Both the position numbers and the translations under genes were made by a program. Below are positions 1 through 40,718 of a DNA stretch of 64,000 bases, in pieces. Source of the stretch: an uncultured virus (IMG/VR IMGVR_UViG_3300022836_000006). Lineage: Duplodnaviria; Heunggongvirae; Uroviricota; Caudoviricetes. A model generated the notes under the pieces. That model made no database searches and was not told the origin of the DNA. It saw only the letters and a program-made list of their open reading frames with translations. The stretch lies in the IMG/VR virus record IMGVR_UViG_3300022836_000006. One strand, 5' to 3'. Each line of letters starts with the position of its first letter. The stretch's first letter is position 1.

Positions 1-3000
1 CAGGGACGTCCTGACTTGGCAAATCCTGCGGAGGATTCTGAATCTCGTAGCGTAGTCGACGCAGTTGACGAGGCCATGAAACCTGGACGTGAGCGTGAAA
101 CGGTCGAAATGTGGGACAAAGCGGCACAGGAGCGGCTAGACAAGGACCGGGTGGGCTACGTTAGGGAGTTGATCGATCGCGCCAACGATGGCCGTGGGTT
201 CGATGATCCGGTGCAGACTCGTGCGGCTCAGATGATCGTCAACGACTTGGTTCAGGACGCTGTATCGAGTGGCGATGCCCAGAAGATGAAGGACGCGCAG
301 GCGGTGGTGCTCGCGTATCGGGTGACTGGAACCGAACAGGGGCGAGCATTGGCTGCTCGTCGTGATCCCCACAAAACTCCCGAGGAACGGTTTTCGGAGT
401 TCATCGCGTCGTCGCTGTTTCTACCGAAGGCATCGGTTCGCAAAAACCTTTCTGACTCGTGGTCGGCGTCCGCCAAAGCGCGAGAGGTCGATCGTCTGCG
501 CAACAAGATTGCGGATCTGGAGGCTGCGAAGCTCGGGACCGTGGTTGGTGCACCGGGCACTCCTGGGCAGGATAAGACCTTGGCCAATATGCGGCTGAAG
601 TTGGGTGAAGCGATGCAACGTTCCAGCCAGCAGGAGATCGCTAAGAAGGCGGTTGATGGTCGCATGGCTAAGGTTGAGGCGGCGTTCCGTAAGATGGGTA
701 TCACGCTCGATCACATTTTCAATGGTGAGGCGTATTTGAAGCTGCGTGGAAACAAGTTGGTTGATTCGGCGATGAACAAGGCCGGCTACGATGCGAAAAA
801 GAAACGGGTTGTCGGCCTGATTCGACGGGGTTGGTCGGATTCCGATGTCGCCCGTCGCACGGATCAGAATGTATCTGCGGTGGTCAAGGTTCGCTCTGAG
901 ATTATTGCGGCTACTCGTGCAAGATTGGAAACGCTCGGCGACGCTGCTTTGGATCCGGACAAGCTCGATGCTGCGACGCTGGGTTCTGCTCGGGCTGACC
1001 TGAAATCTGGCACGTCTGGGGGGCTATCGGCAGCGGAGCGCCAGAAGAGAATCGATTTGATGCTCTCACGGATGGGGCTGATCGAGAACAAGGAGGCAGT
1101 GATTCGGACCGAAAAGGCGCAGGCAAAGCGTCGGCGCAGAAGCAATGCAAAGCCTAAACGCAAAGCGACACCGTTTCCGGCCAACGCAAAGCCGGGGAGC
1201 GTCGAGTTTCCTGCTGGTGCTGATGGGCAACGTCCCGACGACTTTGGAAACACGCAGCTCGGGCTCGGTGAGGATGCTGATATGGCTCCACCGGTGTTCG
1301 ATATTTCGGATCCGGCACAGGTGGCCCAGGTCGCGAGAACGATTCAGATAGCTGACAGCGGCGCGTTCGATATGCTGTTTGAGTTTTGGATCAATTCGAT
1401 TTTGTCCGGTCCTTTGACGCAGGGTGCAAATGTCGTCGGTAACTCGTTTAACACGGTTTGGGACATGGGGGTGAAGCGCATGGGCGAGGCGATTCTTAAC
1501 GCGGCAGTCAAGGATCCAACGGCGCCACAGCTCGGCGAGTTTAAGTGGATGCTCAAGGGGATGAATAAGTCGTTAGCCGGGGCATGGGCTGCTGCGGTGA
1601 ATACGTGGGCAACCGAGCAGAATATTTACACCAGTTCGATTCTGAATAGTCAGCTTGAGATTAACCCTGTTTTCGATAAGGCAGGCGGGATCAAGGCGGC
1701 GATTCCGGGCAAGACTGGTCGGGTTGTGCGTCTTCCTGGCCGGCTGTTGATGGCGACGGATGCGTTCTTTAAGGCGGCGATCGCTCGGACGCACGTGGCT
1801 GCGGAAGCATACCGCTTGGGTAAGTCATCAAAAAAGAAGGGGGCGGCATTGGTTTCGTTTATTGAGGCGGAGATTGATACGCCGGGGTCGGAGTCTTGGC
1901 GTAAGGCGCTGCTGCTTGCGAACGAGTTGACCTTTCAGGATGATCATGATGGGACGCGGATGGGTAAATGGATGACCTACCTGTCGAAGGCGCGGGAGTT
2001 GGAGGTTCCGGGTGGGATCAAGCCTTTGCGGTTTGTGATGCCGTTTATTCGGACGCCGTGGAACATCTTCCAGCAGGGTATCCGTCAGTCGCCGGTTGGC
2101 GCGGTGGCTTTCGCTGCTAGGATAGGCAGTGCTGGGCTTTACCGCATCAAGGATGGGCGACCAGTGGCGGTCAGCTACCCGACTCCTCTGCTGATCAAGC
2201 ACACGGTAGAGCAGGTGCTTGCTTGGTCGATGGCCGGTTTACTTTATGGGGCTGCAGCCGGAGACGACGACGATGAGGACAAGCAGTTTTTGATCACTGG
2301 GTCTTTGCCGAGCGATCGGATTTCCCAGCGCAATCTCGACCGACGAGTGGGTCTGGCACCTTACGCCATTCGATTTGGTGGCGCACAGGTCAGTTATTCG
2401 CGGATTGAGCCTTTAGCGACGATGCTGGGGCTTGGGGTGGATATGCTCTCTCGTTTGAAGTCAGGTGAGTCTGGGTTTGAGTCGTTTGGGGCGTTCATGT
2501 CTGCTTTGGGTGACTCGGTGGATTCCAAGACTTTTCTGCGGGGTTGGTCGGACCTTGCAGGCGCCATGTCAGGAGAGTCTCGGTTTACGAGCTTTGTTGC
2601 GTCCCAGTTATCGACGCTGATACCAAACCTTTTTCGTCAACCAGTTCGACAGCTTGATGGTGTCTATCGCGAGCGGGAGCATGGACTATTTGCCGAGGTG
2701 GTCCAGAATGTCTATGGGCCGGCCGGGTCTCCAAAAATCGACCCGTATGGCGAGGAGGTTGAACGTCGAGGAGGGTCGTTATGGCGCATGCTGGTGCCGA
2801 TCGAGGTGGGCAAAATCCCCGAGTTGAATCGAGTGGATCAGCTTTTGCTGAATTATCGGCAAACGGCGGACGATCCGCAGTCGTGGGCACCATCCAACCT
2901 GCAGAAATCTATCACGGTGAATGGGGAGCGTCGCACTTTGTCCGGCAAGGTGCTGGAGGAATATAGCCGACGCTCAGGGAAGATGGCGGCTCGTTTGCTG

Positions 3001-3141
3001 CAATCTGTCTCGCTTAATGTCAGCCGTCCTACCTCCCAGGATGTGGAGAAAATTCGTAGGGCATTTACCTTAGCTCGAGCCAATGTGCGCCGGGATATGT
3101 TTTTTGGAACTAGCGCGGATCGCTTTGCTGATCAAAATTGA
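1..3141 (+). CDS. Large virion/DNA-ejection-type protein, 5' truncated by window edge
   Basis: Frame is open from base 1. Helical >1000-aa protein whose C-terminal part (MPFIRTPWNIF, SYSRIEPLATML, KTFLRG) resembles C-termini of large phage internal virion proteins. Directly upstream of the portal. Confidence 0.6.
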   Translation, partial: QGRPDLANPAEDSESRSVVDAVDEAMKPGRERETVEMWDKAAQERLDKDRVGYVRELIDRANDGRGFDDPVQTRAAQMIVNDLVQDAVSSGDAQKMKDAQAVVLAYRVTGTEQGRALAARRDPHKTPEERFSEFIASSLFLPKASVRKNLSDSWSASAKAREVDRLRNKIADLEAAKLGTVVGAPGTPGQDKTLANMRLKLGEAMQRSSQQEIAKKAVDGRMAKVEAAFRKMGITLDHIFNGEAYLKLRGNKLVDSAMNKAGYDAKKKRVVGLIRRGWSDSDVARRTDQNVSAVVKVRSEIIAATRARLETLGDAALDPDKLDAATLGSARADLKSGTSGGLSAAERQKRIDLMLSRMGLIENKEAVIRTEKAQAKRRRRSNAKPKRKATPFPANAKPGSVEFPAGADGQRPDDFGNTQLGLGEDADMAPPVFDISDPAQVAQVARTIQIADSGAFDMLFEFWINSILSGPLTQGANVVGNSFNTVWDMGVKRMGEAILNAAVKDPTAPQLGEFKWMLKGMNKSLAGAWAAAVNTWATEQNIYTSSILNSQLEINPVFDKAGGIKAAIPGKTGRVVRLPGRLLMATDAFFKAAIARTHVAAEAYRLGKSSKKKGAALVSFIEAEIDTPGSESWRKALLLANELTFQDDHDGTRMGKWMTYLSKARELEVPGGIKPLRFVMPFIRTPWNIFQQGIRQSPVGAVAFAARIGSAGLYRIKDGRPVAVSYPTPLLIKHTVEQVLAWSMAGLLYGAAAGDDDDEDKQFLITGSLPSDRISQRNLDRRVGLAPYAIRFGGAQVSYSRIEPLATMLGLGVDMLSRLKSGESGFESFGAFMSALGDSVDSKTFLRGWSDLAGAMSGESRFTSFVASQLSTLIPNLFRQPVRQLDGVYREREHGLFAEVVQNVYGPAGSPKIDPYGEEVERRGGSLWRMLVPIEVGKIPELNRVDQLLLNYRQTADDPQSWAPSNLQKSITVNGERRTLSGKVLEEYSRRSGKMAARLLQSVSLNVSRPTSQDVEKIRRAFTLARANVRRDMFFGTSADRFADQN

Positions 3142-3175
3142 TTGAAAATCAACGTTTAACGGGAGAGAACAAATC

Positions 3176-5383
3176 ATGGCAGAACACGGACAACTCGAAG
3201 TTTTACAGGATCGCATCAGCGGGGTGGAGGCTCCCCCGCATGTTGATAGCACAACTGGACAACTTACGCCACGCGTTGCTTTCCCGTCCGTGCTTCAGCT
3301 CACCTATGATCAGGAGCTTGCGCTGGTGGATCATGCGATGACCCGGCTCGACGATATGGAAAAGGCGATGGGCCGCACGGACGTCATTGAGGACGAGTGG
3401 TGGAAGGGGGAGGGCGTTTCCTCCAATTCAATAGAAGGCGCGGCCGAGAGCTGGATGGGTCGACGTTCACGTTTTGAGGCACTGTTTGAGAACCGGGTGG
3501 ACTGGCGACCGTATTCATTGCCGTCGCCGAATATCTTTGAGGAGTCGAACTTGGTTGTTCCGATCTCGCGCCGGATCTGCCGTCAGATGATTGCTCGAGC
3601 TCAGAACTATTTCTTTGCCACCGATCCTTGGTTTAATGCTACGCCGGAGGGGATGGAGGATGGGGAGTTGGCGGATCAGATCGATCGTTATGCCAAGTGG
3701 AAACTGAACCTGATAGGTTCAAAACGGGGCAAGGAGCGGATCGTCAAGCGTGCCATGCTACTCGGTGAGTGCGTGGTCAAAACCACTTATCAGACGCGTG
3801 ATCAAATCTATGAGACGATGGTCAAGGCTCTAGTGGGCGCGGAGGGTGAGGCTATCCTGGATGCTAACGGGGAGATGATCTTGGAGCGTGCGGACTGGAT
3901 CGACACGGAAACTCCGGGGCTCCGGGTGTTGGGTAGTGATGGGGTGACGCAAGAACCGGAGGCGCCGGTTTACACCGATCAGAAAATAACTAAGCGGCAT
4001 GTGATATTTGAGGGTCCAGAATCGCTCCCAATCTACTACAAGGATTTCTTGGCTCCCCTCGATGCTTTTGATCTCCAGCAGGCGGACTGCATCGCGCATT
4101 TGTATGACCGCAGAGTCATGGATCTGGTCGATACTTACGCAAAGCATGGGGTATTCCGCGGCACGGATACCCAACGTTTCGAGCAGATGAAGCGCACGGT
4201 AGACGCCATGCGGACGATGCTCGATAACAACTCAGAGCCGAAGAGTGGGTCTGCTCGTAATCGGGACGAGGAGGAGGAGGAGGACGATGCTGAATATTCC
4301 GGCGGCGGTCAGCCTATCGTGGAGATGGCCGAGGTGATGCTTTGGTATGATGCCAATGGGGACGGCATACTTGAGAACATCGTTCTGCTGCTTGATCGCA
4401 AGAACCGGCTCCCTGTGCATTATAATTACGTGGCGAATATGTCACCAGATGGCTTGCGGCCGGTGGCGGTGGTGCGAGTTAACGAGGTGGACGACCGTTG
4501 GTATGGGCAGGGCGTCATGGAGATGTTTGACTCTACCCAGACGATCGTGGATCTGCTGGTGAACCGGTGGAACCTGAGCCAATCGAAGGCAGGGCGAGTT
4601 GATTTCTGGGATCCTTCGAAGGTGCTAGAGGGGCGCGACGATCCGAACCTTTGCCTGAATTGGGGGCAGTCCTACACGACAGTGCCGGGAGTTGATGTGA
4701 CCAAAGTGTTACAGTCTGTTTACCTGAACGACGTAAAATTTGAGGCGCTCAAGGATATGCTCGAGTTTTTCATGCAGATGGGGATGAACGAGTCGGGCGT
4801 GACGAATGCGAATGATGGGGCAGCTCTGGGCATGGATACCGCGAAGTTGGCTACCGGGATCCGCAATATTGAGAAGGCCGGCGAGGAGTTGTTTGCGCCG
4901 TTCCTTTCGGACCTGGAGCCGGGTCTTACCGATGTGCTCAAGAGTGAGATTCTAGTGCTTCTGGCTAACCTGAACAAGCCAGAGGTATTCAGCTACTTTG
5001 AGGGGCGAGAGCAGATTACTGCGACGATCGACCCGGCTGACGTGAGCGATGTGAATATGAATGTGACCATGTTCATGACGCGCTACAAGGGAGAGCAGAA
5101 ATTTCAGCAGATGTCGCAGGTTGCTGAAATCATTGAACGGTTTTACATGCTGGATCCGTTGGTCCAGGTGCACGTGGCCGAATACTACCGCGGTATGATC
5201 AAGGCGCTCGACCAGAAGATCAATGTGGACGAGCTGATTGTGCCTTTGCCACCGTTGCCGCCCGAGCAGGCGATCAACAGTGGGAAGGGGCCGCAGCCTA
5301 AGAGGGAGATGGTGACTCGTCCGAAGCCTTCGGCGGCTCCGTCTCAGTTGGACTCATCTTATCAGCCTTCGGCAGGTGGTTAG
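3176..5383 (+). CDS. Portal protein (module A)
   Basis: 735 aa with portal-like segments (LLGECVVKTTY, RWYGQGVMEMFDSTQ, TATGI-like KLATGI). Lies upstream of scaffold and capsid. Confidence 0.75.
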   Translation: MAEHGQLEVLQDRISGVEAPPHVDSTTGQLTPRVAFPSVLQLTYDQELALVDHAMTRLDDMEKAMGRTDVIEDEWWKGEGVSSNSIEGAAESWMGRRSRFEALFENRVDWRPYSLPSPNIFEESNLVVPISRRICRQMIARAQNYFFATDPWFNATPEGMEDGELADQIDRYAKWKLNLIGSKRGKERIVKRAMLLGECVVKTTYQTRDQIYETMVKALVGAEGEAILDANGEMILERADWIDTETPGLRVLGSDGVTQEPEAPVYTDQKITKRHVIFEGPESLPIYYKDFLAPLDAFDLQQADCIAHLYDRRVMDLVDTYAKHGVFRGTDTQRFEQMKRTVDAMRTMLDNNSEPKSGSARNRDEEEEEDDAEYSGGGQPIVEMAEVMLWYDANGDGILENIVLLLDRKNRLPVHYNYVANMSPDGLRPVAVVRVNEVDDRWYGQGVMEMFDSTQTIVDLLVNRWNLSQSKAGRVDFWDPSKVLEGRDDPNLCLNWGQSYTTVPGVDVTKVLQSVYLNDVKFEALKDMLEFFMQMGMNESGVTNANDGAALGMDTAKLATGIRNIEKAGEELFAPFLSDLEPGLTDVLKSEILVLLANLNKPEVFSYFEGREQITATIDPADVSDVNMNVTMFMTRYKGEQKFQQMSQVAEIIERFYMLDPLVQVHVAEYYRGMIKALDQKINVDELIVPLPPLPPEQAINSGKGPQPKREMVTRPKPSAAPSQLDSSYQPSAGG

Positions 5384-17847: not shown

Positions 17848-18204
17848 ATGAGATCACAAGGAGGATTAGGATATTCACCGGGGATTAGCTCAGGAGGTGC
17901 CCCTGCAGCTCATGCTTCGACGCATGCATCAGGTGGCAGCGACCCTATTGCTCCCGATGATTTCGGGGCCATGAGCGCTGCGCTTTCTGATTTAACTGGC
18001 GGAGAAGCTGGCTCCCTAGATGGACTGGCAACTGCTGGAGGCGCGATTGCTGAGAACTCTGTTCGGTTCGTGGTTCAAAACTTTGTGCTGTCGTCTTGGA
18101 AGCTAACGGATGACGATTCCGCAGAGAATGTCGCAGGCGGTATTATTCGTCCAGACGACTATGCAACGACTACGAATGAGTTTGTCTGGCTCCAGGTCAG
18201 CTAA
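17848..18204 (+). CDS. Small fibre-associated protein
   Basis: HASTHASGGSDPI motif typical of phage fibre proteins; RBS AAGGAG. Confidence 0.55.
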   Translation: MRSQGGLGYSPGISSGGAPAAHASTHASGGSDPIAPDDFGAMSAALSDLTGGEAGSLDGLATAGGAIAENSVRFVVQNFVLSSWKLTDDDSAENVAGGIIRPDDYATTTNEFVWLQVS

Positions 18205-18223
18205 CGGAAAGGGAAACACTATT

Positions 18224-19975
18224 ATGAAAATCATTACACAATATTTGGTGCTTTGGGCACTCTTAGCCGGACTGCTCTTCGGTCAAGTGGAGACGGTCAA
18301 GAAGAGTCCGGGCAATGATGAAATTACAGAGGATTTGGTAATCCCTGAAGGACGGGCTCTGACGGTCGATGGGACTCTGACGGTCAATGGCCTCGATGTT
18401 GGCAGTGTGTCGTCGCAATTCGCCGCCCGGCAAATGGCAGGCTACGGCATCAGCGACGGGGCGACGGCGAACCGTGGCGAGATCCTAACGCCGGGTGCGA
18501 TTGGGGACGTGGCTGGTTTACCAATGTCATTTCTCGCGGTCATAGACGTAGGCACATCTGACCCATCTTTAAATTCTGGCGTCATTTACATCGGAGACTC
18601 TACTTCTCCTAACTTCTCGACCGGGGGCGGGACCAGCAATGCCTCATACGCATATATTACAACCGGGGGAAGCCTGCAGATTCGAGTAAATGGGGCAGCT
18701 GGAAGTAATTATCGCCGCCTGATTTACACGGATTTCCGCACGGCTTATTCGGGTCGCAATGGACTCCGATTGGCGATAGTTTTCCCTGAAGGGAATAGCA
18801 CCACGAGCCCCAGAATCGAGGTCGATGGGGTGGATGTTACAGGGAGTTTTGCCCTCAGCACCGCTGGAGTAATTCCGAACTGGATTCCAACTGCTCTAGA
18901 AACTACCAAGTACCTATGGGGGTATCAATGGTCAGCAGGTCGCAGTCCCTACGTGCGAGCGATCATCGGCGCACTTAGCACCGCCGAGTCCGCAACGTGG
19001 GGCACCACCGGCGAGCTGCCGACGTGGGCGACTAAGGCGGGTAGTGCGGTAAATCCTATCGCGAATAGCGGATTTGAAACGACTGGTTCCGAGGGGACTT
19101 CCGTTTTTGCCAATTGGTGGGGCGGCGCGAACCTCACAACATCAGCTGAAACTAGCGATCCTTACGTTGGCGCTAACTCTCTTAGGCTAACCGGAGGGGG
19201 TGCATTGTCCTCAACCCTGAACAACCATTTGAGGGCTGAGCCTTTCGGACTCGACAACTTCGGGGCTCCATGGACTCCCGGTCAATATGGCAGAGTTACT
19301 TTTGCGGCAAAACACGTTTCAGGGGGCAGTCTCTATTTCGGTAACGCTTACGTATCCCTGAAAACAGTCGCATCTGGAGACGCGAGCGGGTGGACTGAGT
19401 TTGAGTGGTCTGGGATTATTACTAGCAGCTCCGGCTATGCAGCCCCTGTTTTTGGAGCGGCATCAAGCGCGGTTTGGTTAATTGATAAAGTAGTGTTTTT
19501 GCAAGAGGGATTAATAGACGACCCATACTACCAGCCAGCCCTTGCTACCGGTGACCGTCTAGGCCGCATGTCCCGCCGCTTGCTGGGTATCACTCCGATG
19601 GTCGCGCTCGGAGTCTCTGAGGTCGTCATCAGTCACACGCTATCATGGGACGGCACCAATCACACCGCGCAATCCCTCACCGGCGGCAAAGCGTTTGAGG
19701 CGGGCTTTGTTCCGACCATGATTTCGCTCGTGCCCGACGCCGCCAGCTCCGGCGACGGTTGGACTATCGGCACCTCCGCCGATGCCGACCAATACAAGAC
19801 CGTGGCGAGCTACTCGACCGGGAAAACGATCTACACGCAGGCCGACTTCGCGAGCCGCGTTCCCGGCGGCACCGGCGCGACCAACCTCGACCTCCTCATC
19901 GATCCCGATACCGCCAATTACACCGGCAGCATCGAGGTCACCATCTACGGCAGCAACACCGCGGGATCCCCCTAA
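18224..19975 (+). CDS. Fibre/receptor-binding-type protein A (LamG-like plus carbohydrate-binding-like domains)
   Basis: Probable start MKIITQY. NPIANSGFET resembles a CBM domain start. Homologous to 39135..40718. Followed by chaperone-like gene. Confidence 0.65.
   Translation: MKIITQYLVLWALLAGLLFGQVETVKKSPGNDEITEDLVIPEGRALTVDGTLTVNGLDVGSVSSQFAARQMAGYGISDGATANRGEILTPGAIGDVAGLPMSFLAVIDVGTSDPSLNSGVIYIGDSTSPNFSTGGGTSNASYAYITTGGSLQIRVNGAAGSNYRRLIYTDFRTAYSGRNGLRLAIVFPEGNSTTSPRIEVDGVDVTGSFALSTAGVIPNWIPTALETTKYLWGYQWSAGRSPYVRAIIGALSTAESATWGTTGELPTWATKAGSAVNPIANSGFETTGSEGTSVFANWWGGANLTTSAETSDPYVGANSLRLTGGGALSSTLNNHLRAEPFGLDNFGAPWTPGQYGRVTFAAKHVSGGSLYFGNAYVSLKTVASGDASGWTEFEWSGIITSSSGYAAPVFGAASSAVWLIDKVVFLQEGLIDDPYYQPALATGDRLGRMSRRLLGITPMVALGVSEVVISHTLSWDGTNHTAQSLTGGKAFEAGFVPTMISLVPDAASSGDGWTIGTSADADQYKTVASYSTGKTIYTQADFASRVPGGTGATNLDLLIDPDTANYTGSIEVTIYGSNTAGSP
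18414..18504 (+). repeat. Shared fibre block 1; inverted copy at 40528-40618
   Basis: Both encode QFAARQMAGYGISDGATANRGEILTPGAIG with only a few third-position differences. Confidence 0.95.
18947..19051 (+). repeat. Shared fibre block 2; inverted copy at 39993-40097
   Basis: PYVRAIIGALST(A/D)ESATWGTTGELPTWAT(K/Q)AGSAV; near-identical DNA. Confidence 0.95.
19517..19593 (+). repeat. Shared fibre block 3; inverted copy at 39478-39554
   Basis: DDPYYQPALATGDRLGRMSRRLLGIT; two synonymous differences seen. Confidence 0.95.
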
Positions 19976-23427: not shown

Positions 23428-23883
23428 TCAACGTTTTTTTTGGAGGAACGAGTCAACTCCCAGTAGCCACGCCTTGATTGCGTCGGGATTTGCGAGGGCT
23501 TGGGAGAGGATCTGGGCTTGTTTGGATGTGAGTCCTTTGGAGAGGGCTTCGAGGTCGGCATGAAGCTTTGCGCGTGCCTTGTCTGCGGTCGATCGAGCAG
23601 CGCTGAACCGCCGCCCCATGTCTTTGCGCGATCGACTGTCCTCCACTCGGTCCGATGCGTGTTCGGCGCTCCATATGGCGATCCCGTCGAGGTAGCGGCG
23701 GTCTCCCTCTGCAATGCCCATCCCTTTGGTTAGGATCTTGGCTACCATCTTGAGGCTTGGCGTAATAAGCCCCTTTTGCATTTTCGAGAGGGTGGACTTG
23801 CTGATCTCGGCTCGTCGGGCGATCTCGGCTGGTCGTAGGTCCACCTCGAGGCGGAGTTTGTCGAAGTATTGCGGAAATGTCAT
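23428..23883 (-). CDS. XRE-family HTH regulator
   Basis: AEIARRAEISKSTLSKMQKGLITPS. Confidence 0.85.
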   Translation of the reverse strand: MTFPQYFDKLRLEVDLRPAEIARRAEISKSTLSKMQKGLITPSLKMVAKILTKGMGIAEGDRRYLDGIAIWSAEHASDRVEDSRSRKDMGRRFSAARSTADKARAKLHADLEALSKGLTSKQAQILSQALANPDAIKAWLLGVDSFLQKKR

Positions 23884-25076
23884 GGCGTTGGTGGGGTAAT
23901 CTTTAGGAATTGTTGAGCTACAGTCGTCGGGACTAAAGCGGAGAGATATGAATTGTAGAGCCGGGTGGGGCTCTGGTGGCGCATTAGGGCTGCGACACGA
24001 TTGGCATTGCCGTCTATCGACATGAGGTAAGTGCAGAATGCTCTCCGGAAGCCGTTAAACGGCCATAGCGGGAGGTGCAGATCGCCCTCAAGCGAGGACG
24101 TGTGTTTAATGATGCGCCGCCAGTATCGTTTGCTGGGGGCGACGAATGGGCCGGTCTGCTCGGTCGTGAGATCCAGCCACCCCCATAAATTGGGGGGCAG
24201 GCCCATATCGGTGCTTAGGATCCAGTCGTCGTCGGTTTTACAGATTTCGGCCGGTATTCGGATCTGCTTTTCGTTGGTCTTGATCATGTCCCAGGTCATG
24301 CGGTCAGCTTCTGCTGTGCGGATGCCGGCGAAGGCTCGGACTGCGATGTTTGGGATGCATTGCGGCCGGTCGCTCATCACGAAGCGCAGGATTTCAGCGA
24401 TCTGGGTCGGCGTCGGTATTTGCTTCGGCTTGCGCTGGGGTTTGGGCAGATCGTCTTTTCGCAGATCAGCAATGGGGTTTTTACCGATCCAGCCGACCCG
24501 CTTGGCGTATCTGAAGAAGTTCCCCAGTGTCGTGCATCGGTTGTGCGCGGTTCTTGCTGCTTTCGGGGATAGAATGAATTTGAGCACTTCGGCGCGAAGG
24601 ATGGATGACATCATCCGGGATGGGCCGATGTTGCGTGCGAGTAGTCCGATCACGGAGTTGAGAGAGTCTACCGTGCGCCATTCTCGGTTGAGGCTACGCT
24701 TGATGCCGATGAAAAGTTGCCGAGCGTCATCGATGGTCACCTTGGAGTTGGAGTAATTGTCGAGGTAGTAGGTTGCGGCATCTGTGAGGGTTGCTCCGGT
24801 CGGCTGCAGGAGTCGGCGTGCTTGATCGAGGTCAGCGAGCACGTCTGGTTGCATGAGTGACTCGGCAGCGCCAGATCCGTAAGCGTTTAGGACTCGGCAG
24901 TGATTGCGCCATGCGGTGAGGGCTTTTTTCTCCGTCTCGAATCCTGGACGCTGGCGACGGCCGTTGATTGTGAGGGTGAGTTGCCACGGCTTTTTTCGTC
25001 CCTCGATGTGGGCGATGGGGATCGTTCCGCTTCGGGATGTCGGTGTCCGTTTTGTGGCAGTTTTGTGGGTGTTCAC
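23880..25076 (-). CDS. int: Tyrosine recombinase/integrase
   Basis: AFAGIRTAEA (R), ICKT (K), NGFRR, MRH, terminal Y; SAM-like middle domain. Confidence 0.85.
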   Translation of the reverse strand: MNTHKTATKRTPTSRSGTIPIAHIEGRKKPWQLTLTINGRRQRPGFETEKKALTAWRNHCRVLNAYGSGAAESLMQPDVLADLDQARRLLQPTGATLTDAATYYLDNYSNSKVTIDDARQLFIGIKRSLNREWRTVDSLNSVIGLLARNIGPSRMMSSILRAEVLKFILSPKAARTAHNRCTTLGNFFRYAKRVGWIGKNPIADLRKDDLPKPQRKPKQIPTPTQIAEILRFVMSDRPQCIPNIAVRAFAGIRTAEADRMTWDMIKTNEKQIRIPAEICKTDDDWILSTDMGLPPNLWGWLDLTTEQTGPFVAPSKRYWRRIIKHTSSLEGDLHLPLWPFNGFRRAFCTYLMSIDGNANRVAALMRHQSPTRLYNSYLSALVPTTVAQQFLKITPPTP

Positions 25077-31924: not shown

Positions 31925-32907
31925 TAACTTCTATGAAATACCCAATTTACAAGCGCACCGTTTGGCGGTGCCTTAAAGGTCTACGGTTGTCCGATCCTAG
32001 GTTTTCCCGTTGGTGCGTTGATCACCATTTCTTCGGGCTTTTTCACCGCAGTGAGCATTGGCTCGGCTGCGAGACGTGGAGCATTGCCGGCGAATTTCGC
32101 GGGTGGTATTTTTGCAATTTTAAGAGCTACGGATGGTTGAATTCGGAGGAATCTAGGACATACCTGGAGCTGCGTCTGGGGCGGGCCATTTGGCTAATTG
32201 GGCGCCAGAGTCCTGATCAGTATAAGGGCGTCGAGGTGTTCGGTGGCGTGCATGATCTCGAGGGGGTGGTGCTGTGAGCCTCGAGTATGTGCGCAGTTTC
32301 TACAAGGTGCCGGCAGAGATCGGGCGGCGCGTGGTCGTTTACGGTAAGGCTGGGATCATTGCAGAGGATCACGGTCATTACATTGGAGTAAATCTCGACT
32401 CAGATAGGCCCGGGAATGTCGGCCGTTATCATCCATGCGATGATGTCAAATATTTGGGTATGGGCGAAGTGCGAGAGCTGACGCGAGGAGATACGACGGA
32501 AGCGGTATCGAATGGGAGGTTATGAACCCTAGGCGCATATCTCATTATTACGAGATCCCAGAACCTGAAATCCTAACTGAATCATGAAATACACATACTC
32601 AATCGAATCCTACTTCTCCAGTAAGTGGGTAAAGCTCTTCACTGAAACGCGAGACTTCTGCAAGGGTTGGCTTACTCACGCACAATACGACTACCCAAGA
32701 AACGCTAAGCGAATCGTGAGGAGCGACGGCAAGGTCATGGCCGAAATCAAAGCCAACGACGAGGTGAGCATCGGCATGATCGCAAGCTACCCGACTCCGG
32801 AACAATACGAGAGAGCAGCAAATGTCGCTCTCGCAAAGGCGGCACGCATCCGAGAAGCGGACGGACATGAAGAACGCCGAATGAACCGCATATCGCTATC
32901 CACCTAA
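31921..32907 (+). CDS. Three small hypothetical genes (31921-32277, 32274-32525, 32584-32907)
   Basis: Co-oriented short ORFs, first two coupled. Confidence 0.55.
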
Positions 32908-32959
32908 CAACTTCTACCATGAACGCCGCCAACAATCACCTCCCAAACATTGACCACCA

Positions 32960-34036
32960 ATGATACCCGCAAACCAAACCCCTCCCACGACCGCCAAGCC
33001 GCGACCAGCTGGTTCGCACTTTTCCGTAGCAGTCAAATCTGAATGGAAAGGAGGCTGGCAAGCTGAGTTCAGTGTCGGAGTGCAGACCTTCGCAGTCGGG
33101 CCAGAGTATAAGACGTTTTCAGAAGCACAGTGGATGTCTGACCGACTACGGGAAGCCCTCACGTCTATTGCGAAGTCTGAACCCGCACAACGGTCTGCAT
33201 CGCTTTGCTGCCCAGACTGCGAGGATACCGGCATGGTGGGCGATCAGGAAGCAGGCGGCATGTATCGGGGATCCAAACGGACGCTCAACGACGAATGGGC
33301 AATGTGCGGGTGTGATCCGGGGGCCCTGGCGGTCCGTAATCTCGCAAAACGATCAGGGCCGAACACCGGAGATCAGCTATGAGCGACTCAAATAAAGGCA
33401 ACTGGGCGACGGCTACGGCCGCCCAAAAAGAGGCAGTGAATGAAGCGTGGCGTCGCGCCGCACAACGGTCCGAATCGGTGGATTTGCTGACCAACCGGAA
33501 AACAGACTCCATCGTCAAAGACAGAGACTACCATATCACCGGATACGTGCTTACATCTAAGTCAGGAAAGGAATCCTGCGTCGTAGATAGAGCAGCAGTC
33601 CGATGGCTCACGAGCGTGGAATGGTGGGAGCTCATGCACCCCGCGAGCGACGACCTCGCGCCGAACAATGAACACACCCCGAAAAACGACCGTGAATAAC
33701 ACTCAAAATTCCAAAGGCGTGACTGGATCGAATTGTCTGCATAATCTGGTTTCCTTATTTCGCAACCGGTTGATCCCCAGCGAGGGCCGGACTCAGGGCG
33801 AGCAATACTATGACGACAGGTGGTTCGCGCTCTCCGACGGGTGCGATACGGTCCAGAATCTAGCCGATGACCTCGAACCGATTATCGAGGAAAGTGAACG
33901 TCGAAAGGAAGCACTCGAATGGTGCCTACGCAAACTCAAAACCCATCACGCGACCAAGCGCGGAATCTCCGCGTTAATCAAAGAAACTGAAGCGATGACG
34001 AACACCCAGTTGAGCCGCGAGCCCAAACAACCCTAA
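32960..34036 (+). CDS. Three accessory hypothetical genes (32960-33382, 33379-33699, ~33692-34036)
   Basis: Coupled short ORFs ending PNTGDQL, PNNEHTP, TNTQLSR (left-arm peptides). Confidence 0.55.
33729..33751 (+). repeat. 23-bp direct repeat; second copy at 35707-35729
   Basis: CGAATTGTCTGCATAATCTGGTT, identical, encoding NCLHNLV in both ORFs. Confidence 0.95.
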
Positions 34037-34055
34037 CCCAGCCCCATCCAATATC

Positions 34056-34958
34056 ATGCCCAATAATCCCACCCCTCCCGCTGCCGTGCAACCTAGGCTT
34101 GTTGGCTCAACGTCTGGTTCGGCCAATCTGGAAGACTTACTAGCGAGGTGCAAAAAGCTCCATTCGTTTATCGGATGGTATTGCATGTCATGCGATTCCG
34201 AGGTCGATGCGACATACCGAGAACGCTGCGCGTCATGTGGCGGCGTCCTACATGACGAGACAATCACCGGAAACCTAGTCGAAGCGGCGACTTATGAATT
34301 AAACGCACTGAAGTGTCCGTGGCATCCTATCGAAACTGCACCGAAGGACGATAGGATAGACATATGGCTGTCTTGCGGCACCCGATGGTGCGACTGTTAC
34401 TATGATGTGATTTGCGACCAATGGCGAACGAGTAGGCCATCCGGGAATCTCCTTTCGGTCAAAGCAAGGTTTGTATCTCACTGGATGCCCATACCGCAAT
34501 CACCGAAACCCGCGAATGATGCGCCTCGCCAGAAGCGACTGGTTCGGCTCGATCGCTCAAACTACCTCGACTTCGATCCGCCTCAACGCTGCGAGTGCGG
34601 GGGATCCCTCCAAGTCAAAGACTATCCAAACCGCCGGGATGAATCGAGGTATGAGGTATTCTGCCCGCAATGCTCACAATGTGACCCAAACGGCTACGGA
34701 TCGCAGCGTGAAGTAATCGACCAATTCCCCAGTATACTTTCTGAGAACTCTGGTTCTAAATTTTATGCCGATGATAGAGGCAACGTCGTGGACTACTACG
34801 ACGAAACTGAGCAAGTCGCGCGAATAGATAGAGAGGCTACCGTCAACGGGAAGGCCGATCAAAGCACCTTCGACAACTGGGCGGGAGGCCAAGCACTAGA
34901 GGCGTGGATGCGACTCAACGACTACGGGGAGGAACTCGATGAGGCGGCCCGAATTTGA
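34056..34958 (+). CDS. Mosaic accessory protein (Zn ribbon, DUF551-like, second Zn ribbon)
   Basis: CxxC pairs; WHPIETAPKD...SHWMPIP; reads through an internal right-arm repeat. Confidence 0.6.
   Translation: MPNNPTPPAAVQPRLVGSTSGSANLEDLLARCKKLHSFIGWYCMSCDSEVDATYRERCASCGGVLHDETITGNLVEAATYELNALKCPWHPIETAPKDDRIDIWLSCGTRWCDCYYDVICDQWRTSRPSGNLLSVKARFVSHWMPIPQSPKPANDAPRQKRLVRLDRSNYLDFDPPQRCECGGSLQVKDYPNRRDESRYEVFCPQCSQCDPNGYGSQREVIDQFPSILSENSGSKFYADDRGNVVDYYDETEQVARIDREATVNGKADQSTFDNWAGGQALEAWMRLNDYGEELDEAARI
34506..34544 (+). repeat. 39-bp direct repeat; second copy at 35034-35072
   Basis: AAACCCGCGAATGATGCGCCTCGCCAG(A/C)AGCGACTGGTT. Confidence 0.95.
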
Positions 34959-35110
34959 TGCGAGCCCGGCGGATTGAGCCGCAAGCCGTAGGCTCAAATC
35001 GCTTTGTTCGGCACTATTCCCACCCCACCTCAAAAACCCGCGAATGATGCGCCTCGCCAGCAGCGACTGGTTAGCCTCCGAATTTCAACCGTAACAGAAA
35101 ATATAATACA

Positions 35111-35680
35111 ATGAGCGATACACCCAAAACTGACAGCGCATTTGATACCGGTCCCGGTTCGGGCAAGCTAATGTGCCAACTACTCGAAAAGGAGACCGCA
35201 CGCCACGCGGAGATACTACACGACGGCTATGCTGTCTACTCGCAACTCACGGACCACGAAAAGAAATACACATCAGCAGAAAACGTTTCCACCGTTCTCG
35301 ATGCGTTCAAACGCGCAGTGGCTAACAACGAGGTCAGACGCGACCCGTCGAAGGCTTAAAACCTCAACCAACCAATAAAAATGTCATACCAAAATAAAAT
35401 GTCAGAAGCCGGACAGCGAGGGTCGTTGTCTGAAGTGGTTTGTTATGCTCAGATTGGCATCGACTGCTGCAATCAACCGATAATCCCAACGCGTGCCAAG
35501 CTGTCGATGCACACCAATCGGCACACCAGCACGTCAGGAAACTCGTGGGGATGGGTCGATGGTTGCTCGCTAAACATATGCTGGTCAAACGACGGCGAGA
35601 AATTCAACAGAAAAAAGGCCGCTGAACTGGTTGCTTTGCATAACACCACTATCAGACAAGAGGGCCAACCCAATGAGTAA
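35111..35680 (+). CDS. Two accessory hypothetical genes (35111-35359, 35381-35680)
   Basis: Short ORFs whose junction lies inside the 35320-35448 palindrome. Confidence 0.55.
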
Positions 35681-36011
35681 CCGAATTTCAAATACCGTCA
35701 AAGGCCCGAATTGTCTGCATAATCTGGTTCTGTCTCTGGTGCTTACTTTTCAATGGTATGCAGCGACAAAAACAGGAGGCAAGCGCATCGAATATCGCGC
35801 CATGTCCGCCTGGTGGAAGCCGCGAATATGGGAGCTAAGATCAGAGATAACGCACGTCCGATTCTATCGAGGCATGACAAAAGAGACGCTCGAATTTCTA
35901 GTGGACAAAATAGACATAGGACCGTGCCCGATCCCGAAATGGAAGGGCCAATACTACCGCATCCACTTTTCCCAGAACACTAAGCTCATCAACAAGGCGA
36001 AGCCGGTTTGA
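35673..36011 (+). CDS. ASCH/PUA-like domain protein
   Basis: LVLTFQWY...GGKRIEYR...WWKPRI...VRFYRG. Confidence 0.6.
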   Translation: MSNRISNTVKGPNCLHNLVLSLVLTFQWYAATKTGGKRIEYRAMSAWWKPRIWELRSEITHVRFYRGMTKETLEFLVDKIDIGPCPIPKWKGQYYRIHFSQNTKLINKAKPV

Positions 36012-36053
36012 TGCAGCGACTGTTCGGCACTTTATTATGACCCTTCCAAATCC

Positions 36054-36413
36054 ATGAAACGATCCCCACTTAAACGAGGCACCAGCCAACTCAAGCGCAC
36101 GCCGATCAACAAGGTCAGCCCACGGCGTAAACGTGAGTCAGCCATCTATTCCAAGGCCAAGAAACAAGCGTTCTTCGAACTGGCTGGCGATCAGTCAAAC
36201 GGGGAGGACGAGCCAATTGCGCTGTGCGAACGATGCATGACAACTGCCGAATGGAACGAAGACGCTAAGCCTGCTCAGGACTGGCACCACTGGCACCCAG
36301 TTGGACAAGGTGGTCCCTACCTAGGCGGACGGATGATCTGCGTCTGTCGGCCATGCCATGACTGGATTCACCAGCACCCGGCTATTGCCCGAAAGGACGG
36401 GTGGCTCAAGTAG
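36054..36413 (+). CDS. HNH-like endonuclease
   Basis: CERC, DWHH, CVCRPCHDWIH; basic N-terminus. Confidence 0.7.
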   Translation: MKRSPLKRGTSQLKRTPINKVSPRRKRESAIYSKAKKQAFFELAGDQSNGEDEPIALCERCMTTAEWNEDAKPAQDWHHWHPVGQGGPYLGGRMICVCRPCHDWIHQHPAIARKDGWLK

Positions 36414-36506
36414 TTGACTTTTGACTACTCCGACCGTTCTCCTCCTGCATAGATATTGATCGATCAGAGAGTTGTTCGGGTAGCATACAACGCCAGCGAA
36501 ACTCTC

Positions 36507-36541
36507 GCCCCCTGTCCTGTGATCGCAGGCAGGGGGCTTTT
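36507..36541 (+). terminator. Intrinsic terminator at convergence of early region and module B
   Basis: GCCCCCTG(T)CCTG...CAGGCAGGGGGC-TTTT. Confidence 0.7.
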
Positions 36542-36543
36542 CG

Positions 36544-37158
36544 TTAGATCGGGAGGAACCTTTTCAGGAACGCATACACTCTGCGGAAAGTCTGACGAAA
36601 CCAGCCCGGTATCTTGATCTCTCGGTTATAGGGACCGGACCCTTCCTTCATGATCGGCCGGTTGGCGTTGAACTGCCAGTAGTCCACGGCTCGACCTGTT
36701 CGAGTCTGGATGTCCAGCGTAACCTCTCGGGTGACTGCGTTACTCTGGTCTGAGTGCTCACCTAGTGCCACGTCCGTAGCCTTACCATGGCCCAACAGGA
36801 CGGTGACGATGAAGATGTCCCGGCTTCCACCCTTACAGGTGATGGCGTAGCGCCCACCCGGTAGCAGTCCATCTGCTGCATAGATAGTGAGGTTTCGACA
36901 CTCGTTGTTGATGTCGATGCAGTCCTCTTTGCCTCCCGGCACCACTCCTATGATCATCACACGCAGGTCAATGACTCCTGAAAACTTGACGGTGTCGCTG
37001 ATACCTGCCGGCAGGACCAAGCCTCTCAGGTTCAGCGTGTAGACTCGCACATTGCCCGGGGTCCAGTCCCGGTCCCAGAACAGGATCAGGCCATTGAGCC
37101 AGATATTGCCCTCTGTGTCGCCGGTGAACGAATACAGGTTTACATCAGGCTTGCCCAT
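36544..37158 (-). CDS. Hypothetical protein, possible beta-helix
   Basis: TAATG-coupled start MGKPDV; EDCIDIN motif. Confidence 0.55.
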   Translation of the reverse strand: MGKPDVNLYSFTGDTEGNIWLNGLILFWDRDWTPGNVRVYTLNLRGLVLPAGISDTVKFSGVIDLRVMIIGVVPGGKEDCIDINNECRNLTIYAADGLLPGGRYAITCKGGSRDIFIVTVLLGHGKATDVALGEHSDQSNAVTREVTLDIQTRTGRAVDYWQFNANRPIMKEGSGPYNREIKIPGWFRQTFRRVYAFLKRFLPI

Positions 37159-39134: not shown

Positions 39135-40718
39135 TTAAACAGGTGTTGAAATTTGGTGACCTCTGACAAAGGTGCGAACGACCATCGTCCCGTCGGACTT
39201 GGCCCAAAGGTTCGCAGTAGCAACCTTGCGAGTTGCGAGAGTGCTAGGATTAACCCCAGCTGCAAGTGCTGCACTAGCGACATACGTGGTGAGTGCTCCC
39301 GTGGCGGAGCCGACAGAGGTGGTAGGCGTTCCGCTCGCTGGCACTTGCTCGATGCTGTCAATGACCGTAGTGCCTACGTCAATGACTGGGCCACCGAGGA
39401 TCTGCTCACCACCGGCGGCGCTGGAGTCAGTGTTACCGATGACGATGAAATCGTTTTGCCCGAGGGCAGGAACGGGCGTGATACCCAGCAAGCGGCGGGA
39501 CATGCGGCCTAGACGGTCGCCGGTGGCAAGGGCTGGCTGGTAGTATGGGTCGTCAATGAGTCCGGGCCGTAATATCTTAATGTAGTCTACCTCCCAGTTT
39601 GCGGCTGCGGTAGTGCCCAGACGCAATTGGTTCTGACCTGACCCGTCATTATCAGAAATCGTAAGAGTGCCCGACCACACTTCCCACGCAGGGGTGCTTT
39701 GCGTTAATTCAAGGTCAAGCTCTTTATCTCCGGTGTCTCGCGTGAAGTAAAGTATGTCTCCAGCAGATCCTCCGACCCGACGAGCCCGAAGCTCGTAGTA
39801 AAAGGGATCGCCTACACCAAAGCCTGAAAATCCACCGGTGTCTACCAAACTGTTGTTACCCGAATTAGTAAGTCCATTGCCCGTGATCTGCACGCCGTCT
39901 GTCGTCTCGGCGGTCGTAATACTTACTCCAGTAGTCCACCCGTCCGGCGTGCTGCCAGTAAAGTCTGTGAACTCGCCGTGAGACAACGTGTCTACCGCGC
40001 TACCCGCCTGAGTCGCCCACGTCGGCAGCTCGCCGGTGGTGCCCCACGTTGCGGATTCGTCGGTGCTGAGTGCGCCGATAATTGCTCGCACGTAGGGAAC
40101 GCGGCCAGAGGGCCAATCGAGACCAAATCCCACATACGTTGTCGCTACGTTGTTTGGCATCCAGTTGGACCCAGTGCCGAGAGTCTCTATCGTGAACGAA
40201 CTAGAAACATCGACACCGTTAATTTCAAAACGCGGTTTTGTTGAGCTATTACCTTCGGTGAATATGATAGCAACTGAAAGTCCTTTGACCCCAGAATAAT
40301 CAGCACGAAATCCGCTGTAATTATACCGCTCCCACTGGGTCGAACTTGCGTTGTTTTGCTGAATCCGCAAATTCCCGTCTGTAAATAGACTAAAAATAAA
40401 AACGCCCTCCTCTGTAAAATCTAACGGGAACTGAGAATTTGCATAAAATAATCGAGCGGTGGCACTTATATTAGCAGACGGCACGTCAAGCACTGCCAAA
40501 ATTGTAAGGGGCAAACTCGTCACCGCGCCAATTGCGCCCGGCGTGAGGATCTCACCACGGTTCGCCGTCGCGCCGTCGCTGATGCCGTAGCCTGCCATTT
40601 GCCGGGCGGCGAATTGCGGGCCGACCACGTCCTGAAGCCCAATGCGGTCCCGCATCTGTTCCTGTGATGCCGATTGCATGAATGCATGAATGTCACTGCC
40701 TACTGTAATGTCTGCCAT
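39135..40718 (-). CDS. Fibre/receptor-binding-type protein B
   Basis: Homologue of 18224..19975 with different N-terminus, CBM-like middle and C-terminus. Confidence 0.65.
   Translation of the reverse strand: MADITVGSDIHAFMQSASQEQMRDRIGLQDVVGPQFAARQMAGYGISDGATANRGEILTPGAIGAVTSLPLTILAVLDVPSANISATARLFYANSQFPLDFTEEGVFIFSLFTDGNLRIQQNNASSTQWERYNYSGFRADYSGVKGLSVAIIFTEGNSSTKPRFEINGVDVSSSFTIETLGTGSNWMPNNVATTYVGFGLDWPSGRVPYVRAIIGALSTDESATWGTTGELPTWATQAGSAVDTLSHGEFTDFTGSTPDGWTTGVSITTAETTDGVQITGNGLTNSGNNSLVDTGGFSGFGVGDPFYYELRARRVGGSAGDILYFTRDTGDKELDLELTQSTPAWEVWSGTLTISDNDGSGQNQLRLGTTAAANWEVDYIKILRPGLIDDPYYQPALATGDRLGRMSRRLLGITPVPALGQNDFIVIGNTDSSAAGGEQILGGPVIDVGTTVIDSIEQVPASGTPTTSVGSATGALTTYVASAALAAGVNPSTLATRKVATANLWAKSDGTMVVRTFVRGHQISTPV

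Follow-up and report, generated by a model that had tools for sequence, protein, structure and literature searches.

Integrons have been studied as bacterial devices. In sedentary chromosomal integrons of the Vibrio type, many unrelated small cassettes share one homogeneous site type, and the attCs of an array are near-identical. Inverted cassettes in bacterial integrons are single exceptions per array and mostly hold toxin-antitoxin genes with their own promoters. In lambdoid phages, the boundaries of nin-type regions and other modules are merely short shared sequences. Clusters of attC sites without an integron integrase (CALINs) were reported from phages only in 2023 and are rare there: 17 were found in 10,705 phage genomes, and IntI1 recombined five of the six phage attCs assayed against attI1 (Qi, Rajabal, Ghaly, Tetu, Gillings 2023, Front Microbiol, PMC9892861). 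The parts of that report drawn on here describe a survey of isolate genomes, not of IMG/VR or metagenomes.

We analyzed a stretch of 64,000 nt from an uncultured Caudoviricetes virus (IMG/VR record IMGVR_UViG_3300022836_000006), called the window below. Five hairpin sites with attC architecture lie within 2.0 kb of it (33997-36028), at about one site per gene. The element kind, an integrase-less attC cluster in a phage, is already published: as in the phage CALINs presented in those parts of the 2023 report (PMC9892861), attC-type sites stand between small phage genes, there is no phage IntI, and DNA methyltransferases belong to the cargo. New with respect to them are the inverted orientation, the in-frame run-in of ORFs to the AAC crossover box and the evidence for swapping at the population level. 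With Vibrio-type arrays the locus shares many unrelated small cassettes, one site type, the R''-L''...L'-R' layout, the bulged base and the unpaired spacers, whereas it has no adjoining IntI, attI or Pc, its genes are inverted and it is located in a phage early operon. As in the inverted cassettes of bacteria, ORFs are antisense to the attC top strand; here, however, inversion extends to the entire array, which is read through transcription of the operon. The position between replication genes and HNH/terminase genes, the small genes of unknown function and the high mosaicism recall lambdoid nin-type regions but, unlike lambdoid mosaic boundaries, those of the array have structured sites, conserved AAC/GTT triplets and covariation.

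On the gene strand, the sites read xxxxAAC, a spacer of 4-8 nt, an imperfect stem with one bulged base, a second spacer and GTTxxxx; all five are assigned to the - strand. The first (33997-34123, 127 nt) reads GACGAAC-ACCCA-GTTGAGCC...GGCTCAAC-GTCTG-GTTCGGC, with 9 pairs and a bulge in the 3' arm, and its loop contains the ATG of the next ORF at 34056. Its two halves, at 33997 and about 34085, had been listed as separate arms in the preliminary description and together make one full site. The second (34964-35012) is short and degenerate, a hairpin followed by GTTCGGC; the partial hairpin proposed at 34969-35013 is real, but its left end lacks the AAC triplet. The third (35320-35448, 129 nt; GGCTAAC...TCAGACGCGACCC / GGGTCGTTGTCTGA...GTTATGC) has 12 pairs and a 3'-arm bulge, and contains in its loop the ATG of the ORF at 35381; an IMG/VR contig (L001) stops just past it, at 35450. 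The fourth (35638-35733, 96 nt; GCATAAC-ACCAC-TATCAGACAA...TTGTCTG(C)ATA-ATCTG-GTTCTGT; 10 pairs, 3'-arm bulge) joins a right arm noticed earlier at 35707 to a left arm at 35638, GCATAAC, that had been overlooked. The fifth (35972-36028, 57 nt) has the boxes and arms first ascribed to it; like 35320-35448, it had been claimed as a full site, and in both the sequence confirms boxes and arms and the single strand folds as expected.

The five lengths (49, 57, 96, 127 and 129 nt) and the terminal structures vary, as they do among attCs (about 57-141 nt). AAC and GTT triplets are present in four of the five sites, 34964-35012 lacking one, and are invariant in 37-38 of 38 sites from related phages. 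The four outer box positions agree only in part with RYYYAAC/GTTRRRY and are paired in 50-70% of sites. Spacers are 5/5 in the array sites, against 5/6 in most of the true attCs aligned. Folded as single-stranded DNA, full sites form the R pair, leave their spacers unpaired and have a single bulge in the stem. For the - strand of 35972-36028 the fold z-score is -3.18, with none of 200 shuffles equally stable; the other full sites are of ordinary stability (z -0.5 to -1.8), and 34964-35012 has z -0.52.

The preliminary description had placed an array from 32902 to 36028, but sites are recognizable only from 33997 on. Neither of the arm pairs 32902/33010 and 33660/33729 adopts the architecture on folding (z -1.18 and +1.66) or has a significant model match, and the supposed left arm at 33358 is a solitary AAC box. 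The arm at 33729 belongs to an orphan (33727-33751, + strand), an exact 24-nt copy of 35705-35729 (repeat family D3) that ends in CTGGTT and has neither a partner left arm nor a fold. Those at 34530 and 35060 proved to be two copies of a 45-nt direct repeat with AAT replacing AAC (34506-34550 and 35034-35078, + strand; 93% identity, family D2). The first copy is a mini-site ending in GACTGGTT within a 300-aa ORF, the second stands upstream of the ORF at 35111, and a third, diverged copy precedes a homologous module in the related viral record G001. We also considered the 24-nt and 45-nt repeats as phage promoters or leader peptides, an idea dropped given the paired left arms and the covariation.

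Could the boxes and stems be the product of chance, or a side effect of coding? We scanned for AAC and GTT boxes with spacers of 4-8 nt and a stem of at least 9 pairs with at most one bulge and at most one mismatch. Five loci were found in 33600-36100, including a doubtful one at 33671-33771, with stems of 9-12 pairs, a single bulge and spacers of 4-8 nt; the remaining 61.5 kb of the window contained two. Dinucleotide shuffles (n = 300) gave a mean of 0.20 loci and a maximum of 3, and none reached five. The motif CTGGTT occurs 21 times in the window, eight of them in the array region. The AAC box does lie in coding sequence and several of the arms first listed are not sites, both of which suit a chance origin. 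It is nevertheless very improbable in view of the shuffles and of three further results described below: none of 500 shuffles reproduces the covariation, the same five places come out on top in independent models, and the site family recurs in unrelated contigs.

We built three covariance models; all are home-made, and their E-values are rough. R1 represents the GTTCAGAGG subfamily. R2 was trained on 12 true attCs, taken from class-1 cassettes and from a plasmid integron of a cyanobacterium, and R3 on 38 sites of relatives, with none from the window. Control attCs were taken from plasmid integrons; the alternative source was the 32 genomes behind chance loci, whose contigs end just past intI. 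Run with filters off, R1 proved too narrow as a window-wide detector; it gives 32.3 bits for 33997-34123, on which it was not trained, and 10.2 bits for the first 45-nt repeat copy.

Over 240,908 bases, R2 returned 32 matches: 13 training sites or duplicates, 15 phage sites scoring 14.6-42.5 bits, and four held-out true attCs (43, 31.1, 29.4 and 14.1 bits), with no others and none in the window. Sites in four related phage contigs thus reach 14.6-42.5 bits, as high as the held-out attCs, and over all R2 scans the relatives' sites score 14.6-44.6 bits (E down to 2e-8). When the related contigs were scanned in full (115,787 bases), the 12 matches all fell within arrays, on one strand per contig. 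Two attCs of the published phage TJE1, which were recombined by IntI1, score 25.2 and 28.8 bits, and this 25-29-bit level is within the range of the relatives' sites. The window's own sites match R2 weakly (5.9-12.9 bits, E 0.18-9.1), none of them significantly when taken singly. With filters off over 15 kb of the window, five of seven R2 matches coincide with predicted sites, each of them on the - strand; the top match in 25-40 kb is 35972-36028 (12.9 bits, E 0.18), and the others score 11.4 (35320-35448), 11.2 (33997-34123; E 0.46, - strand), 6.7 (35638-35733) and 5.9 bits (34964-35012). With R3, the five sites take the top ranks in the whole 64 kb at 21.5-31.3 bits, the next match reaching 14.5: 35320-35448 comes first (31.3 bits, E 5e-5), with 27.5 bits for 33997-34123 (E 4e-4), 23.2 for 35972-36028, 21.7 for 35638-35733 and 21.5 for 34964-35012 (E 0.009).

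The stem covaries. Among the 38 relatives' sites, 86.7% of paired cells are complementary, against 66.9% in shuffles and 29-42% in slid controls, and both sides have changed in 114 cells against 45 in shuffles; none of 500 shuffles reached the observed pairing or the observed number of two-sided changes. The L helix is 93.5% paired, with two-sided changes in seven of its nine pairs.

The sites are also inverted. The top strand of an attC normally runs with the cassette ORF, which precedes the site, and the array sites do not follow this order. In the true attCs (15 of 15) the bulged base sits in the 5' arm as read on the coding strand, whereas each array site has it in the 3' arm; all R2 and R3 matches in the arrays are on the strand opposite to the genes, and Pfam-confirmed genes (Dam, N6_N4_Mtase) are oriented opposite to the R2 matches. 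In TJE1 the sites share the strand of the genes and follow the canonical order, ORF then attC, whereas here every site is inverted. Both the attC architecture and the opposite orientation, as first proposed, are thus backed by the true-attC model and by the side of the bulge. With at least two neighboring attC sites and no intI nearby, the locus is a CALIN on the site calls of our home-made models.

The subfamily is scarce elsewhere. A scan covering 185,579 species, each represented by one genome, found no full site other than a hairpin of an Acinetobacter prophage, present in two copies (L151 and L153); its 53 stretches were otherwise devoid of a full site. A search with the right-half 16-mer returned 123 viral stretches, nearly all Ser/Gly-repeat coding sequence, with real sites in two contigs only. 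The region had no blastn match in 50,697 phage records.

All cargo ORFs of the window are on the + strand. The first (34056-34958) encodes a Cys-rich protein of 300 aa of no known family, possibly two modules fused at the 45-nt repeat. It is followed by ORFs of 82 aa (35111-35359, no family) and 99 aa (35381-35680), and by a phrog_625 gene of unknown function (35675-36011), whose homologue in G001 begins to be similar at the GTT box. An HNH endonuclease gene (36054-36413; PF01844 E 0.0054, phrog_740 E 1.2e-9) comes last, past the last site. Upstream ORFs enter the hairpin in a single frame in 29 of 34 cases, and the next genes start within or just past it. In relatives the cargo is rich in DNA methyltransferases, Lar and an Acb2/Tad1-like protein, the gene for the last being found in G001; it is largely counter-defense.

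Gene content changes at the boxes in related contigs, as had been predicted. The nearest contig, G001, matches the window at 99.9% identity as far as 35645 (GCATAACA) and shows no relation to it beyond, and contigs of four sequencing runs likewise depart from the window after this position; three continuations in salt-lake assemblies have nothing in common beyond AACA. At 34003, contigs of two runs part directly after AAC, and a branch point at 35324 in salt-lake assemblies coincides with the AAC of site 35320-35448; only the AAC(A) box is shared at both. The unit between 35324 and 35645, which consists of this site and the ORF at 35381, was assembled as a separate piece with a depth of 30, against 10-19 on its flanks. 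Similarity between the related records G034 and G036 begins exactly at AAC. A 51-nt GATGA site is 98% identical across otherwise unrelated contigs: in 20 metagenome contigs it follows no fewer than 16 different upstream ends, and the identical site with its downstream gene is found behind two or three different upstream genes. Integron cassettes have their boundary at G|TT of R'; read on the attC top strand, the junctions at 34003, 35324 and 35645, in G034/G036 and in the metagenome contigs fall at this triplet. The GTT box is a similarity boundary too: the 51-nt site has nine different downstream contexts, and two distinct right arms are found ahead of the phrog_625 module, a pattern that exchange by IntI at one side does not by itself predict.

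These junctions could have another origin. The hairpins may serve translational coupling, RNA processing or weak termination, swapping being a by-product of recombination by the phage's RecT and exonuclease between near-identical copies in co-infecting phages. The window phage encodes both proteins; the 51-nt site, 98% identical between unrelated contigs, is long enough for annealing-type recombination, and both of its ends are similarity boundaries. The single reading frame and the gene starts in or just past the hairpin are consistent with a translational role. We nevertheless consider this explanation rather unlikely. The five window sites differ from one another in sequence, and the branches at 34003, 35324 and 35645 share AAC(A) only, leaving no homology tract for annealing. 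None of the five sites coincides with a terminator-like call on the + strand, where the single such call is at 36515-36534, past the HNH gene, and a search of 32000-37000 against Rfam (E up to 1) returned no match. Nor would this reading explain why the sites, with bulge and spacers in place, fit a model built from true attCs only.

We favor, with a probability of roughly 0.6, the reading that the array is an inverted, integrase-less attC-type cluster (CALIN) whose cassettes are exchanged at the boxes by an integron-type recombinase supplied in trans. The array would be the accessory-gene stretch that closes the early operon in a temperate phage from a salt lake, built in reverse of bacterial integron cassettes. 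The canonical 'bottom' strand of each site, the recombinogenic one, would be the gene-sense strand, so that a cassette would consist of a site and the ORF downstream of it. Sites would fold as single strands in vivo, and the left edge of the cassette would fall inside the AAC triplet, between AA and C, the mirror image of the integron crossover between G and TT. For the upstream ORF, AAC would usually be an Asn codon, the last residues and the stop codon coming from the neighboring cassette's site. An integron-type tyrosine recombinase acting in trans would let cassettes be gained, lost and re-ordered at the boxes; the enzyme would most likely be a host IntI, less likely an unrecognized phage enzyme.

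No integron integrase was found in cis. The tyrosine integrase of the phage (23880-25076, - strand; phrog_1, E 1.9e-24) is not an integron integrase: it has no match to TIGR02249, and its top NCBIfam match is XerC at 19 bits. None of five related viral records (G001, G034-G037; one a 97% complete provirus) contains an IntI over the cut-off, tblastn of two IntI proteins against the window and 33 loci gave nothing, and no IntI was found in 23 metagenome contigs. The locus is hence not a complete integron, which would have intI (TIGR02249), attI and Pc beside the array. This leads to a third alternative, in which the sites are processed by an enzyme of the phage itself, such as its divergent tyrosine integrase or the HNH nuclease encoded where the array ends, in a self-contained system that has converged on the attC form. 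The lack of IntI in cis suits it, as does the absence of the subfamily from representative bacterial genomes, and inverted cassettes would be antisense at a bacterial attI and thus silent. Furthermore, the window, G034 and G037 each have one or more tyrosine recombinases, and in G037 the array end directly adjoins a tyrosine integrase. However, the window integrase shares only 19% identity with that of G037, both lack a match to the IntI family, and no gene was found to accompany all arrays, G035 (a fragment) having none between primase and terminase. We regard a phage-encoded system as still less probable than the RecT explanation.

Returning to the inverted CALIN, we may tentatively extend it, as a possible but doubtful scenario, to a mirror-image cassette pool of the salt-lake phages' own: site then gene, an in-frame crossover at Asn, a stop lent by the next cassette, and counter-defense cargo shuffled on the gene-sense strand during replication by a borrowed host IntI or an unrecognized recombinase. 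If so, a bacterial integron would leave such mirror-image cassettes silent, and the phages would hold a viral counterpart to the defense-banking integrons of bacteria. What the present data add is an uncultured phage family with whole inverted arrays, and population assemblies that branch exactly at the crossover triplet, so that turnover becomes directly visible in population data. Should IntI or a new enzyme prove to act on these sites, this would explain the mosaic accessory (nin-like) regions of phages, and the flanking sites would offer a route to counter-defense genes.

The window contains a temperate phage whose early operon, on the + strand, encodes RecT, an exonuclease, a VRR-NUC protein and a DnaC-like loader, followed by a series of small genes that match no Pfam family (32274-36011) and, at its end, an HNH endonuclease (36054-36413). 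We find in this series a real attC-type array without integrase, situated in the phage accessory region. Two full sites (35972-36028 and 35320-35448) and a partial hairpin (34969-35013) are present as the preliminary description gave them. The left arm at 33997 and the right arm near 34085, both listed there, re-pair as one full site, 33997-34123; for the site at 35638-35733 the right arm (35707) had been listed and the left arm, GCATAAC, had been missed. Other proposed arms did not hold as sites: 32902/33010 and 33660/33729 show no site-like fold, the left arm at 33358 is a lone box, and the right arms at 34530 and 35060 are copies of a 45-nt direct repeat with AAT in place of AAC.

Read on the gene strand, all sites have the order xxxxAAC (AAC box), a spacer of 4-8 nt, a stem of 9-12 pairs with one bulged base, a second spacer and GTTxxxx (GTT box). 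A scan for this architecture returned five loci in 33600-36100, one of them doubtful (33671-33771), and two in the other 61.5 kb of the window; 300 dinucleotide shuffles of the region gave a mean of 0.20 loci and a maximum of 3. Single-strand DNA folding gave the expected shape for each of the four full sites. Just one of them, the 57-nt site at 35972-36028, clearly exceeds its shuffles in stability (z -3.18 for the - strand); z values of the long sites are -0.5 to -1.8. No Rfam match to the sites and no + strand terminator-like call on any array site was obtained. Three longer ORFs, at 34056-34958 in the window, at 7917-8555 in L002 (a stretch of the related viral contig G001) and at 2849-3355 in the DNA stretch L229, run straight through a site or site remnant, and look as if the genes of two cassettes had been fused in one frame.

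As controls we took the ends of annotated cassettes from five class-1 plasmid integrons and one cyanobacterial plasmid integron. These true attCs are detected by the same scan. A covariance model, R2, built from an alignment of twelve true attCs, produced 32 matches over 240,908 bases: 13 training or duplicate sequences, four held-out true attCs (43, 31.1, 29.4 and 14.1 bits) and 15 phage sites (42.5 to 14.6 bits), with none elsewhere in these bases. Over the full related contigs, 12 of 12 matches fell inside arrays. The attCs of phage TJE1, described in PMC9892861 as recombining with attI1 via IntI1, score 25.2 and 28.8 bits; by the yardstick of this model, the relatives' sites equal validated ones in their likeness to attC. 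The window sites are weaker (12.9, 11.4, 11.2, 6.7 and 5.9 bits, E 0.18-9.1), and make up five of the seven R2 matches in 15 kb. A further model, R3, built from 38 sites of relatives and none from the window, places the five sites at the top of the whole window on both strands (31.3, 27.5, 23.2, 21.7 and 21.5 bits; next match, 14.5 bits). E-values are rough for both models, as for R1, a model of one site subfamily. Furthermore, the attC structure is maintained by compensation across the 38 sites: 86.7% of cells pair, versus 66.9% in shuffles, and both-side changes occur in 114 cells versus 45, values reached in none of 500 shuffles, in an alignment that was fitted to the model and thus leans towards structure. 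Slid controls of this alignment are 29-42% paired.

The sites had been called reversed, rightly so, since R2 and R3 matches are without exception opposite in strand to the genes, Pfam-confirmed Dam and N6_N4 methylases among them, and since every array site, read on the gene strand, carries its bulge in the 3' arm; true attCs, read on the coding strand, carry it in the 5' arm (15/15). In contrast, R2 matches in TJE1, the phage published in PMC9892861, are on the gene strand, and inversion separates this site family from at least that case. The left box on the gene strand is usually followed by A (AACA), like R'' in the true attCs aligned for R2, which speaks against a plain mirror image.

From 28056 onwards, the window sequence recurs without difference in three IMG/VR contigs. 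The longest of them, G001, agrees with window 1-35645 at 99.9% and shows no relation to it thereafter; the break follows GCATAACA, which is the left box of site 35638-35733. Beyond this point G001 carries three short, very clear sites, AAC-N5-GTTCAGAGG-hairpin-CTCTG(A/G)AAC-GTCTG-GTTRGRY. Pattern scans recovered sites of this type from another four viral contigs (G034-G037) and from 23 metagenome contigs; no full site of the type was found in one genome per species across 185,579 species. A 28-nt conserved hairpin, GTTCAGATGAAGCGCCATCTGGAAC, flanked by AAC and GTT at longer spacers, occurs in eight viral contigs and two Acinetobacter genomes (L131, L133, L135, L137, L138, L143-L145, L151, L153).

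Arrays of different contigs resemble one another in nucleotide sequence only at the sites, where 10 of 10 blastn matches fall. One site and its following gene are common to G034 and G036, which differ in the genes before it; their similarity begins exactly at AAC. A 51-nt GATGA site has at least 16 distinct upstream ends in 20 metagenome contigs, and nine downstream contexts in the 18 where these are visible; four of the contexts each recur behind two or three different upstream genes. Two of these contigs have ATC or ACC as the triplet, which a cut between AA and C (AA/C) would predict. Contigs from four salt-lake runs (the window possibly derives from one of these runs) were compared with 32800-36500; they depart from it at 34003, 35324 and 35645, all at AAC boxes, and beyond 35645 three different continuations share only AACA. 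The stretch 35324-35645, a site and its ORF, forms a separate contig of depth 30, with flanks at 10-19; rare forms and circles are not visible in such contigs. The cassette unit is therefore a site plus its downstream gene with its left edge at AA/C, the equivalent of the integron crossover when the opposite strand is read. Boundaries fall at the GTT box as well: nine different downstream contexts follow a single site, and the phrog_625 module lies behind two different right arms.

The tyrosine integrase of the window (23880-25076, - strand) is not an integron integrase; the preliminary description had noted no obvious IntI-specific insertion in it. TIGR02249 gave nothing over its cut-off in five related viral records, one a 97% complete provirus, and tblastn with two IntI proteins found no match in the window or 33 related loci. 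The metagenome runs containing window DNA are from salt lakes. A putative host IntI supplied in trans is plausible, because integrons and CALINs (attC clusters lacking an integrase) are reported from hypersaline bacteria in PMC7923331.

Several other features were observed. The window holds two distinct structural gene sets: a first module at 1-23 kb (1-23000, + strand) with portal and major head genes, and a podovirus-like one at 36544-64000 on the - strand with tail tubular, head and adaptor genes. G001 shares only the left phage, and the join falls just past the HNH gene; either tandem prophages or a chimeric assembly could account for this. Three inverted segments of 89-114 nt, 89-93% identical, between 18414-19596 and 39475-40618, connect ORF 18110-19975 of the left phage to ORF 39135-40718 of the right one, and may be shared receptor-binding segments pointing to a common host. 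The convergent gap past the HNH gene contains a GC-rich hairpin and T run (36500-36545), the sole + strand terminator-like call; AAC and GTTAGAT lie on its flanks, and its bulge is on the side opposite to that in array sites. Past the G001 array (L002 10190-12720), AGTAGGG(G/A) precedes the ATG of five successive genes by 5-10 nt. This motif differs from the GGAGG found in other parts of these contigs; it may have an atypical role in ribosome binding or regulation, or mark DNA of other origin.

Window cargo ORFs have no Pfam family. In relatives' arrays, 13 of 54 ORFs do, among them seven methyltransferases, two Lar restriction-alleviation proteins and one Acb2/Tad1-like protein in G001. The latter, a 102-aa ORF directly after the third G001 site (L006:18838-19146; PF24729 hairpin domain, 31.3 bits, E 2.3e-7), is a candidate sponge against cyclic-nucleotide defence signalling. 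Reading frames were counted at 40 sites (window, L006, L227-L233 and L236-L256), and at 34 of these an ORF of 40 codons or more comes from upstream and reaches the box; the 34 cases are not all independent, though the upstream genes are mostly unrelated. For 29 of the 34, the reading frame makes the AAC box an Asn codon. Five use the frame with xAA before C, where xAA is a stop codon in four and the frame stays open in the fifth; none uses the third frame. Tails such as NDEFRGGCKPSSGTSCS are common to unrelated proteins and are encoded in the neighbour's site.

An attC array without integrase in a phage is of a kind already known, attC clusters in phages being described in PMC9892861. Our literature search, to which the supplements of that paper (possibly listing orientations) did not belong, returned no paper on inverted arrays or population-level swapping. 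New here are the inversion, the population evidence and the in-frame box: with the crossover placed inside a codon that is read in frame, whatever gene stands upstream would stay open as far as the neighbouring site and take both its tail and its stop from there.
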